Below, piece by piece: positions 25,873 through 30,994 of a DNA stretch of 32,000 bases (its first letter is position 1; every line of letters starts with the position of its first letter). The position numbers and the translations under genes are program-made. Source of the DNA: Candidatus Heimdallarchaeota archaeon (GTDB lineage: Archaea; Asgardarchaeota; Heimdallarchaeia; Heimdallarchaeales; Kariarchaeaceae). Location of the stretch: assembly GCA_030149205.1 (NCBI GenBank), contig JASBSB010000006.1:450001-482000 (forward strand). The letters are read 5' to 3'. The notes under the pieces were generated by a model that was not told where the DNA came from, made no database searches, and saw nothing but the letters and a program-made list of their open reading frames with translations.

Positions 25873-27927
25873 GTGTTGGGATTTGATATCCTACCAATGT
25901 CGAAGCCGAACTCAGAACAATCAATCCGAATATCAGCCTTTTTACAACTTGAGGACGGTACCCAAAAACAGTGGGTAAATATCTCCAGACATAAACTTTT
26001 ACAAATTATCCATAAATACAAACCTCGGATTGTAGGAACCGACAATGTTCAAGAGATACTTTTGCGGAATGAATCTATGGCAAGGTTCCATAGAAAACTC
26101 CCCACCAACACTAATATAGCACAAGCAAACATTACCAGAACAGGAAAACCCATAGAAATTAAATCTTTGTTCAAACGGTACAACATAAAATCAAATGGAA
26201 AAGCATCACCACTTGAAACCGCAAGAGGGATTGTAGAATTAATTAACAAAGATATAGGAATGATTATCGATGTTTACGAAGATGAGACACTAGTTAAAAT
26301 CTCGCAACCCAGACGAACAAGTAAAGGAGGATGGTCTCAATCTCGCTATGAAAGACAGAATGAAGAGGTGGTTCTTCATGCAGTAGATAAAGTCCAAGAT
26401 AAGCTTAGATTGAATGATGTAATCTTTGATGCGAACATAGCTAAAACAAAATACGGAGCAAAAAACGCAGTCTTTCATACTTTTCTACCCAGAGAGAAGA
26501 TTTTAAAAATCTTTAAAGGAGTTAATTTAAAACCTGCGAAGGTTAAATTTATTTCTCCTGCTAGAAGAACCCCTAAACTGAAACCACTTAATTCTGATAT
26601 TAATATCAAACACGTCAGTTATCAAAGAAGAATAATTGTTGGTATTGATCCAGGAACAACAGTGGGTGGAGCGGTTATGGACTTACGAGGAAAGGTCTTA
26701 GGTACCTTCAGTCGGAGAGAAATGACCAAAGCAGAGATAATTTATGAAGTAACAGATTACGGAATACCGGTAGCATTCTGCTCAGATGTATCCCCAATTC
26801 CAAATTTAGTTTCCAAGCTTGCTGCAACGTTCGATGCTGAACTTTACTCACCAAAAGTTTTACTTTCTAAAGTTGACAAGCGTGACTTAACCAAAGACTA
26901 TCCAGACTTAAGAAACAACCATGAGATGGATGCATTATCTGCTGCGATAAAGGCATACAACCTTCTAAAACCTAAATTAGATAAAGTCGAAAGTTCACAC
27001 CTCAAAAACCATGAAAAGGATATCGCTAAAGCCTTGGTAATCCGAGGAATGACGGTAGCTGACGCTATTGATGCAGCCAAGACCAGAGAAAAAAGAGAGT
27101 CTTCAGAACAAGAAAAACCAATTACACAAGAGTCAGACATTAATCAGGCCCTTCAGAATCGCATTGACAATCTTCTAAAATATCTTGCTCAATCTGAATC
27201 AACTCTTGGCTATCTACGTGGGAAAATTGGAGAGTTAGAAAATAGCTTGGAAACTCAACAAAGCATAAACTTTAGACTTGTTAAAAAAATTGATGACTTA
27301 AGGGACGCCAATATTTTAAAGGCTTTAAAGGACGATCTGGTTTCTGAAAAGATCAGAGAAATAAACAGTCTCAGAAAGTTATTAGCCCAAAAAAATCAGA
27401 GAGAGCAGAATATGAAATCACTCATAACTGAGTTACGTAAATCACTCTGGATTAGCCTACAAGAGGGAAAATACCCTATAAAAATATTAAGTAAATTTTC
27501 TGCTAATGAGATAGCTAAACTCGAGAGAGATTATTCCATAAAAGAAGGTGATATTTTATTAATCCTAGATTCCTCTGGAGGAGGAAGGTTGACAGCTATC
27601 CAACTAGCTGAATACAAGCCAAGAATTGTATTTTTAAATATGGATAATTTGTCACCAGAAGCACAGAGTGTATTTTCTAATTATGAGATCCCAATAATAT
27701 CAGCCGAGGGTTATAACATACAAATATTAGATACAATTGCTTTAATTCATCCTGATGATTTAAATCGATCCATCAACAACTACAACAGGATTCATCAAAA
27801 GAAGAAGATTCAAGAACAAAGATCCAAACTGATGGGTGCCATAAATGACTATAGATATGAAAGAAGCAGGTTCTTTAGCTCGATTCAACGAGATTATGAT
27901 GATCATGAGACTGAGAATGAGGTTTAA
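25873..27927 (+). CDS. DUF460 domain-containing protein (RNase H-like folds plus coiled coil)
   Basis: LGFDIL, GTDNVQEI, GGWSQSRYER, IVGIDPGTTVG, DVSPIP..V.KLA and NNHEMDALSAAIKAY motifs, a long coiled coil and a C-terminal alpha/beta domain. Confidence 0.87.
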   Translation: MLGFDILPMSKPNSEQSIRISAFLQLEDGTQKQWVNISRHKLLQIIHKYKPRIVGTDNVQEILLRNESMARFHRKLPTNTNIAQANITRTGKPIEIKSLFKRYNIKSNGKASPLETARGIVELINKDIGMIIDVYEDETLVKISQPRRTSKGGWSQSRYERQNEEVVLHAVDKVQDKLRLNDVIFDANIAKTKYGAKNAVFHTFLPREKILKIFKGVNLKPAKVKFISPARRTPKLKPLNSDINIKHVSYQRRIIVGIDPGTTVGGAVMDLRGKVLGTFSRREMTKAEIIYEVTDYGIPVAFCSDVSPIPNLVSKLAATFDAELYSPKVLLSKVDKRDLTKDYPDLRNNHEMDALSAAIKAYNLLKPKLDKVESSHLKNHEKDIAKALVIRGMTVADAIDAAKTREKRESSEQEKPITQESDINQALQNRIDNLLKYLAQSESTLGYLRGKIGELENSLETQQSINFRLVKKIDDLRDANILKALKDDLVSEKIREINSLRKLLAQKNQREQNMKSLITELRKSLWISLQEGKYPIKILSKFSANEIAKLERDYSIKEGDILLILDSSGGGRLTAIQLAEYKPRIVFLNMDNLSPEAQSVFSNYEIPIISAEGYNIQILDTIALIHPDDLNRSINNYNRIHQKKKIQEQRSKLMGAINDYRYERSRFFSSIQRDYDDHETENEV

Positions 27928-30517: not shown

Positions 30518-30640
30518 GCTAATTACTTTCTCTTTTAATTTATAGACTATTTGGCTAAACAACCTGGGCTGAACGGAGAAAATATCCGTAATTAGACAAA
30601 ATATTTAAGTTCAAAGAGGATGGAAATGATTTAGCTGTCA

Positions 30641-30648
30641 TTTAAGAA
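30641..30648 (+). promoter_or_regulatory. Candidate TATA box of the tRNA-Pro gene
   Basis: TTTAAGAA about 25 nt upstream of tRNA position 1. Confidence 0.4.
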
Positions 30649-30703
30649 TAACAGCAATAAATAACGGACGGGTAGTCTAGCTTGGTATGATGCTGGGTTT
30701 GGG

Positions 30704-30717
30704 TAACAAATCAAAAC
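30704..30717 (+). other. tRNA intron 1 (14 nt, canonical 37/38)
   Basis: TAACAAATCAAAAC. Intron CAAA pairs with tRNA 32-35 (TTTG) as the 4-bp central helix, with 3-nt bulges GG^T and AC^A. Confidence 0.88.
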
Positions 30718-30739
30718 ACCCAGTGGTCGGGGGTTCGAA

Positions 30740-30769
30740 ACAAAGAGAACTGGCTTCTTTTTGAGAAAT
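30740..30769 (+). other. tRNA intron 2 (30 nt, non-canonical T-loop 59/60)
   Basis: 9-bp hairpin CAAAGAGAA/TTCTTTTTG (one G-U) with a 5-nt loop; central helix TTCG/AGAA (3 WC pairs plus G.A); bulges AA^A and AT^T. Excision restores TTCGAAT. Confidence 0.85.
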
Positions 30770-30814
30770 TCCCTCTCCGTCCATAAATTTTCTTTTTTAA
30801 TATACCTTCTGAAT

Positions 30815-30994
30815 TTAATACGATGTTGCTTCTACTTTTTGTTCGCTTGAATTAGGAACCCAAAGTTCATCTTTTAAAAGATCTCGAATTGCTACACGGA
30901 TAGCTTCAGATCGTGTTGGATACTTCTGTTGTCTGACAAGTTCGTCAAGACCATAAAGAAATTCATTGGGCAAATACACTGTTACAAGTTTCAT
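30815..30994 (-). CDS. Ribbon-helix-helix (CopG/Arc/MetJ) regulator, CdrS-like
   Basis: MKLVTVYLPNEFLYGLDELVRQQKYPTRSEAIRVAIRDLLKDELW. AGGAG lies 7 nt before this ATG, so the start is placed at 30994. Confidence 0.88.
   Translation of the reverse strand: MKLVTVYLPNEFLYGLDELVRQQKYPTRSEAIRVAIRDLLKDELWVPNSSEQKVEATSY

Follow-up and report, generated by a model that had tools for sequence, protein, structure and literature searches.

A tRNA-Pro(UGG) gene with predicted introns at positions 37/38 and 59/60 in an Asgard archaeal genome with many T-loop introns

The window (the whole 32,000-nt stretch of DNA analysed) carries a tRNA-Pro(UGG) gene that is interrupted twice, once in the anticodon loop and once in the T-loop (Table 1). 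The coordinates, the exon-intron boundaries and the spliced 74-mer given in the original prediction were all exactly reproduced from the sequence and with ARAGORN, and its reading of the locus as a two-intron tRNA-Pro(TGG) gene was supported by the ARAGORN call on the spliced form and by the alignment to orthologs. Removal of 14 nt at 37/38 and 30 nt at 59/60 yields a clean 74-nt tRNA-Pro(UGG), called tRNA-Pro(tgg) by ARAGORN. The spliced product combines a 7-bp acceptor stem with an anticodon stem of 5 bp, the loop UU-UGG-GA, a 5-bp T stem and the T-loop TTCGAAT; it ends in A73 and shows the D stem, 7-nt anticodon loop, U33, G37 and 7-nt T-loop of an elongator tRNA-Pro(UGG). CCA is not encoded at the 3' end, as exon 3 stops at A73. 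When intron 2 alone was removed, ARAGORN in intron mode reported Pro(tgg) with a 14-nt intron. The unspliced precursor gave no ARAGORN call and the Rfam tRNA model had no match anywhere in the window, which bears out the suspicion that standard annotation may miss the gene. The GC content was 59.5% in the exons, 21% and 33% in the introns, and 35.5% in the window.

Table 1. Features of the tRNA-Pro(UGG) locus, in window coordinates.
Feature	Position	Strand	Description	Basis or location
Distal promoter-like box	30603..30610	+	ATTTAAGT within AAAATATTTAAGTT, candidate BRE/TATA	63 nt upstream of mature 5' end
Proximal promoter-like box	30640..30647	+	ATTTAAGA	26 nt upstream of mature 5' end
tRNA-Pro(UGG) gene	30666-30783	+	Two introns	Sequence, ARAGORN on spliced form
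Exon 1	30666-30703	+	nt 1-37: acceptor 5' strand, D arm, anticodon stem 5' strand	Sequence, ARAGORN, ortholog alignment
Anticodon TGG	30700-30702	+		
G37	30703	+		
Intron 1	30704-30717	+	14 nt, canonical 37/38, after G37, relaxed BHB	Sequence, ARAGORN -i
Exon 2	30718-30739	+	nt 38-59: anticodon stem 3' strand, variable loop, T stem 5' strand, T-loop T54-A59	
Intron 2	30740-30769	+	30 nt, T-loop 59/60, after A59, BHB with mismatch	Sequence, genome scan, orthologs
Exon 3	30770-30783	+	nt 60-73: T60, T stem 3' strand, acceptor 3' strand, discriminator A73	
T-run	30788..30798	+	TTTTCTTTTTT, candidate archaeal terminator	5 nt past 3' end

TTTAAG boxes are found at -63 and -26 of the gene. Among the 45 tRNA genes detectable in the genome (see below), TTTAA[AG] boxes occurred within 90 nt upstream of 18 (background 12.8%, p = 4e-6), and runs of at least four T within 25 nt downstream of 24 (background 20%, p = 1e-6). 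Judging from archaeal promoter architecture, the proximal box may serve as a promoter element. A near-identical AAAATNTTTAAGTT box (window 30598-30611) was also observed at about -47 to -63 of Glu(CUC), Glu(UUC), Val(GAC), Gly(GCC) and Pro(UGG), the other tRNA genes carrying it at -47 to -60; it is probably a BRE/TATA element, in which case the 5' leaders would be about 25-30 nt long. Elsewhere in the window, and unrelated to the tRNA gene, a 684-aa ORF (25873-27927, +) matched DUF460 and, weakly, the acVLRF1 release-factor-like domain.

No second Pro(UGG) copy was found in the assembly, which is 93.5% complete, by blastn, ARAGORN, a genome-wide search with the Rfam model, the T-loop scan described below or a scan agnostic to intron position that required a T-arm and a closing acceptor stem only. 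A Pro(GGG) gene is present in the genome, and no Pro(CGG) gene was found there. CCA and CCG made up 44.6% and 6.2% of the proline codons in long ORFs (together 51%), so that, with no Pro(CGG) found, tRNA-Pro(UGG) is needed. An independent hydrothermal-vent metagenome contig from another study was identical over 30583-30901, both introns included, and the independent metagenome search showed no intron-less joint or allele. The identical stretch shows that the allele is no assembly artefact.

The spliced product was compared to 10 orthologous Pro(UGG) sequences from six genera and two families of the order, three of which had been spliced likewise beforehand. The alignment was gapless over all 74 nt, 222 of the 231 stem cells were paired, and 15 of the 21 stem pairs showed compensatory changes (on both sides). 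The sole non-pair of the spliced tRNA, a U.U at 13:22, is common to 9 of the 11 sequences. Exon 1 was matched in relatives at 83-97% identity over 20-33 nt, and the spliced T-arm of the window's genome (G000) is identical to the intron-less T-arms of three members of its family (G005, G007 and G011). Overall, the sequence evidence supports the prediction of a functional tRNA-Pro(UGG) gene with introns at 37/38 and 59/60.

Both splicing motifs were read with the standard BHB rule of two 3-nt bulges separated by 4 bp, with the cut after the second nucleotide of a bulge (marked by a slash below). For intron 1, the perfect 4-bp BHB core described in the original prediction was recovered from the sequence as four out of four Watson-Crick pairs between T32-G35 (30698-30701) and CAAA (30712-30715), with bulges GG/T and AC/A. 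Its outer helix (h) is the 5-bp anticodon stem, while its inner helix (h') is the single pair A30705:T30711 closing a 5-nt loop, where a strict motif has at least 2 bp; with one inner pair only, the motif is classed as relaxed (hBH-like). In the folded precursor, central pairs 33-35 had probabilities of 0.64-0.67 and T32:A of 0.14. For intron 2, the hairpin and the mismatched central helix were likewise recovered: T54:A, T55:A and C56:G are followed by a G57.A mismatch (30734-30737 with 30764-30767) that adjoins the 5' bulge and leaves three pairs in place of the strict four, and the bulges are AA/A and AT/T. The flanking helices are both in place, the outer being the 5-bp T stem (probability 0.73-0.75 in the folded precursor) and the inner a 9-bp hairpin (30741-30749 with 30755-30763; 0.79-0.99).

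Within the precursor fold as a whole, the acceptor, anticodon and T stems and the intron-2 hairpin formed at 0.73-0.99, with one lower value, 0.53, for G7.U66, the closing pair of the acceptor stem. The three central T-loop pairs of intron 2 reached only about 0.1 in the thermodynamic ensemble, a value that says little, since many of the perfect TTCA/TGAA helices of other T-loop introns in the same genome scored equally low (0.05-0.2) in the same calculation. The BHB motif is held by the splicing enzyme. The two motifs lie in separate arms, share zero nucleotides and are compatible in one drawn structure. The structure therefore imposes no splicing order, and the suggestion that the introns are removed in a set order found no support; with no nucleotides shared, neither cut is likely to depend on the other.

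In the 3.3-Mb genome (93.5% complete), ARAGORN reported 23 tRNA genes and Rfam 22 above threshold. In our scan of this genome for T-loop introns, a hit needed a T stem, TTCRA with one more nucleotide and an intron 10-150 nt long; three or more of the four central pairs had to form, and ARAGORN had to confirm the tRNA after excision. A 59/60 intron was found in 24 of 45 detectable tRNA genes, half of which (12/24) contained an anticodon-loop intron in addition; examples are C2:432859-432960, C2:484276-484398, C4:455848-455962 and C8:133106-133239. By our own count the 45 genes hold about 48 introns, or ~1.07 per gene. All but one of the genes with a 59/60 intron (23/24) were missed by ARAGORN, and Rfam scored above threshold for a single one, Gly(CCC). 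The Pro(UGG) gene and 22 similar genes are invisible to both tools, and routine annotation would give about half of the tRNA set and no decoder for 51% of the proline codons. Among the 45 genes found, none was Pro(CGG), Ala(UGC) or Arg(UCG/CCG). As a separate observation, ARAGORN assigned the labels Stop(tta) (C4:59648-59735), SeC(tca) (C7:348060-348142), Phe(aaa) (C8:37367-37450) and Lys(ttt) (C2:525506-525612). A short intron was called in every case, and ARAGORN has probably misplaced it in an ordinary tRNA.

Within its genome the Pro(UGG) gene does not stand out, being one of 24 that are interrupted at 59/60. The same position recurs as an intron site in Crenarchaeota. A search with the 59/60-intron signature gave 25 matches in G000, while each of the 46 further genomes from its order gave 0-11 (reversed control 0-5), a contrast biased toward G000 because the signature was derived from that genome. 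The central helix was complete (4/4) in 22 of the 24 T-loop introns, and a G.A mismatch was found only in Pro(UGG) and Leu(UAA). The gene is only mildly distinctive, in having one of the two G.A-mismatched T-loop BHBs and a 59/60 intron that no other sampled family member shows in Pro(UGG). The T-loop introns of Leu(UAA) (C4:455848-455962) and Pro (30740-30769) are both 30 nt long, start with ACAA, end with TTGAGAAA and share the G57.A mismatch. Their overall similarity, however, fell short of significance: they ranked 47th among 276 pairs, and 654 of 5000 shuffles scored equally well. The idea that one is a copy of the other was set aside as unsupported, and a common origin, though possible, has no support. 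The Pro intron had no significant match to any other T-loop intron, and the 24 introns share their constrained ends only.

The relaxed-specificity splicing endonuclease that the original prediction expected of this genome has a matching pair of candidates. The genome encodes EndA twice, and both paralogs have N and C domains (PF01974 and PF02778 matches at C4:500350-500844 and C2:623316-623762). The alpha paralog aligned with the Aeropyrum (A.) pernix catalytic chain (3P1Z chain B) at E = 3e-31, ungapped over residues 18-170 and hence across the Crenarchaea-specific loop (CSL), where K72 of the 216-aa frame corresponds to APE K44. It retains the Tyr/His/Lys triad (...DFIVY..., ...GLEH..., ...SVKKK...), and its catalytic His aligns with the one that 3AJV carries as an Ala mutation. 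The ability to cleave non-canonical introns comes from the CSL and Lys44 (Hirata 2011, PMC3241643), and the EndA type with the L1 loop occurs throughout Asgard and TACK archaea (Kaneta 2018, PMC5829648). The beta paralog has a residue other than His at the M. jannaschii catalytic His position and is predicted to be non-catalytic. The sequences thus support a predicted broad-specificity (alpha-beta)2-type enzyme. It was also observed that beta (L003:1378-1998 (-), equivalent to G000 C2:623193-623813) has its nearest sequence matches in the alpha4 subunit of M. jannaschii (E = 1.5e-19) and the beta-alpha fusion of M. kandleri, with crenarchaeal beta chains absent among the matches. An RtcB ligase is encoded as well (555 bits).

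We infer that the gene would be processed as follows. The single tRNA-Pro(UGG) gene would be transcribed as a precursor with two short introns. In it, the anticodon stem would carry one motif (37/38) and the T stem the other (59/60), where the 3' end of the intron would pair with T-loop nucleotides 54-57. The endonuclease, an (alpha-beta)2 heterotetramer, would cut two nucleotides into each 3-nt bulge and RtcB would join the exons, while RNase P would remove the 5' leader, a 3'-end nuclease would trim the trailer and the CCA-adding enzyme would complete the 74-nt tRNA. We assign a probability of roughly 90% to the reading that this sole tRNA-Pro(UGG) gene gives mature tRNA from a two-intron precursor by EndA cleavage and RtcB ligation.

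Three other readings were weighed against it. Silence of both ARAGORN and Rfam would be expected if the locus were no gene at all, just a cloverleaf-like sequence arisen by chance or an artefact of assembly. However, GC-rich exons set against AT-rich introns, together with a gapless ortholog alignment and its compensatory stem pairs, are not what chance would leave; the promoter and terminator features are held in common with other tRNA genes, and the identity of the metagenome contig and the ortholog covariation effectively refute this reading, to which we attach next to no weight. It is also conceivable that the gene is decaying or poorly spliced, i.e. that a recent T-loop insertion left a mismatched BHB that is cut badly or never, so that the locus is a pseudogene or has low output and an unassembled copy decodes CCA and CCG. 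The G57.A mismatch in the central helix points this way, as do the incompleteness of the assembly (93.5% complete) and the missing 59/60 intron in Pro(UGG) of the other sampled family members, including the same-genus G002, which makes the intron look young. Yet the stems and identity positions are all intact and covary with the orthologs, five different searches returned no other copy while 51% of the proline codons depend on this tRNA, the tRNA-Leu(UAA) gene with the same mismatch is likewise single-copy, and the identical allele was recovered from a second independent sample. We therefore consider decay very unlikely.

The remaining reading accepts the gene and moves the T-loop cut: a junction slid by 1 nt or a shifted BHB would alter the sequence or length of the T-loop. 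The 59/60 junction falls in A/T runs (GAA/A ... AAAT/T), so that 30-nt excisions slid by 1 nt also give 7-nt T-loops, and the genome T-loop scan returned an alternative 28-nt excision whose central helix is 4/4, including two G.U pairs. We also observed that the A/T runs permit shifted BHB-like T-arm pairings over window 30729-30775 and that the isolated T arm prefers a shifted stem. On the other hand, the canonical T stem formed at 0.73-0.75 in the full precursor, and the 28-nt excision would place 2 extra nt between the T stem and the acceptor stem. The 59/60 register alone recreates the uninterrupted ortholog T-arm GGGGG-TTCGAAT-CCCTC (G005, G007, G011), and it alone fits the 23 other T-loop introns of the genome, which end in YGAA plus 2 nt before T60. 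The chance that another register is used is smaller still than that of decay, and shifted T-arm cuts are a possible source of mis-splicing that would leave the T region 2 nt too long. We retain the two-intron gene with excision at 59/60 as the preferred reading.

A comparison of related genomes at 59/60, which the original prediction had suggested, revealed that the introns present differ between genomes. Within family f1, G000 (genus g1) has both introns, the same-genus G002 and G010 (g3) have the 37/38 intron and no 59/60 intron, and G005 (g3), G007 (g5) and G011 (g4) have neither. Within family f2, the 37/38 intron is present and the 59/60 intron absent in G012 and G032 (g7), both are absent in G015 and G020 (g10) and in G027, G033, G036 and G039 (g11), and G028, G030 and G031 (g11) have a 59/60 intron of 32 nt and none at 37/38. 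The orthologs of G002, G010, G012 and G032 were read by eye and stand outside the covariation count. The 37/38 intron of Pro(UGG) is thus commoner among the relatives than the 59/60 intron. Pro(UGG) was not found in the same-genus G001 and G003 (fragmented assemblies, 89% complete) by BLAST or by D-arm, anticodon-arm and D-loop-to-T-loop patterns, the D-arm pattern matching Pro(GGG) only. In the G002 assembly we also noted bacterial-type tRNA genes clustered together (L066, G002:C162:1883-4847), with a bacterial tRNA-Pro(UGG) among them; this is most likely a contaminant contig.

Homology between the Pro(UGG) 59/60 introns of G000 and genus g11 was considered and rejected, as they showed no similarity (2238 of 5000 shuffles score equal). 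Within the sampled family, G000 alone has this intron in Pro(UGG), which is why we read the gain as recent; most simply, it is a recent and independent one. The imperfect BHB and the absence of the intron from the other sampled family members, including the same-genus genome, could be taken one step further, to a very recent gain specific to a strain lineage and caught early. We raise this tentatively and think it unlikely. If true, the genus would offer a natural setting in which to study how BHB introns come to occupy a favoured site. Candidate routes would be reverse splicing directed to the T-arm by EndA/RtcB and then reverse transcription, or else gene conversion among T-arms that are nearly identical.

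The host was identified as an Asgard archaeon with the support of a predicted full-length, eukaryote-type actin (Pfam Actin, 445 bits; C2:232008-233114) whose nearest feature clusters are eukaryotic actins; the Pfam profilin model had no match in the genome, and its control was equally silent. The original prediction had ascribed multi-intron tRNAs to Thermoproteales and other TACK or DPANN lineages, and Asgard archaea, where genes of this kind have been published, were not among the groups it named. Non-canonical and multiple archaeal tRNA introns have been reviewed (Fujishima and Kanai 2014, PMC4033280; Yoshihisa 2014, PMC4090602), and T-loop introns in general have been described (Hirata 2011, PMC3241643). 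Like the present gene, tRNA genes of Thermoproteales and other Crenarchaeota carry BHB or relaxed (hBH / HBh') introns, which lie in the D-loop and T-loop among other places, can number two or three to a gene, and are processed by an (alpha-beta)2 EndA with a broad-specificity CSL (PMC4033280, PMC4090602, PMC3241643). They differ in belonging to another phylum and in that near-identical introns recur across their tRNAs, which points to transposition, whereas only the constrained ends are shared here. The A. pernix enzyme (3P1Z / 3AJV) has the CSL lysine and the Tyr/His/Lys triad in common with the alpha paralog; the beta paralog, in contrast, is less similar in sequence to crenarchaeal beta chains than to the homotetramer subunit of M. 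jannaschii and the fusion of M. kandleri.

The closest parallels are the published Asgard tRNA introns. In Atabeyarchaeia and Freyarchaeia, 92-95% of tRNA genes contain introns, which are often non-canonical, and over half of the genes have several (Valentin-Alvarado 2024, PMC11291895). Across 90 Asgard genomes, called introns concentrate at 37/38 and the T-arm, with strong BHB enrichment at T-arm sites and repeated, mostly terminal gains; no general route of arrival was found, and how introns arrive was singled out as the main open question (Goswami et al. 2026 preprint, doi 10.64898/2026.10.13.758758). The present gene resembles these in its Asgard host, in BHB introns at 37/38 and the T-arm, often more than one per gene, in being partly missed by standard annotators, and in lineage-specific, repeated gains, here exemplified by the Pro(UGG) 59/60 intron of G000 and, with unrelated sequence, of part of g11, absent between. 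The published work differs in centring on Atabeyarchaeia and Jordiarchaeia/Freyarchaeia, where a gene has ~2 introns and D-arm insertions are numerous; this genome has ~1.07 per gene, and its non-canonical introns are almost all at 59/60. On its own the Pro(UGG) gene raises no new question. Multi-intron, T-arm-interrupted tRNA genes have already been published for Asgard archaea (2018, 2024, 2026), and the gene fits the published picture in every respect, as a further data point for heavily interrupted Asgard tRNA genes with a favoured T-arm, lineage-specific repeated gains and a broad-specificity (alpha-beta)2 EndA.
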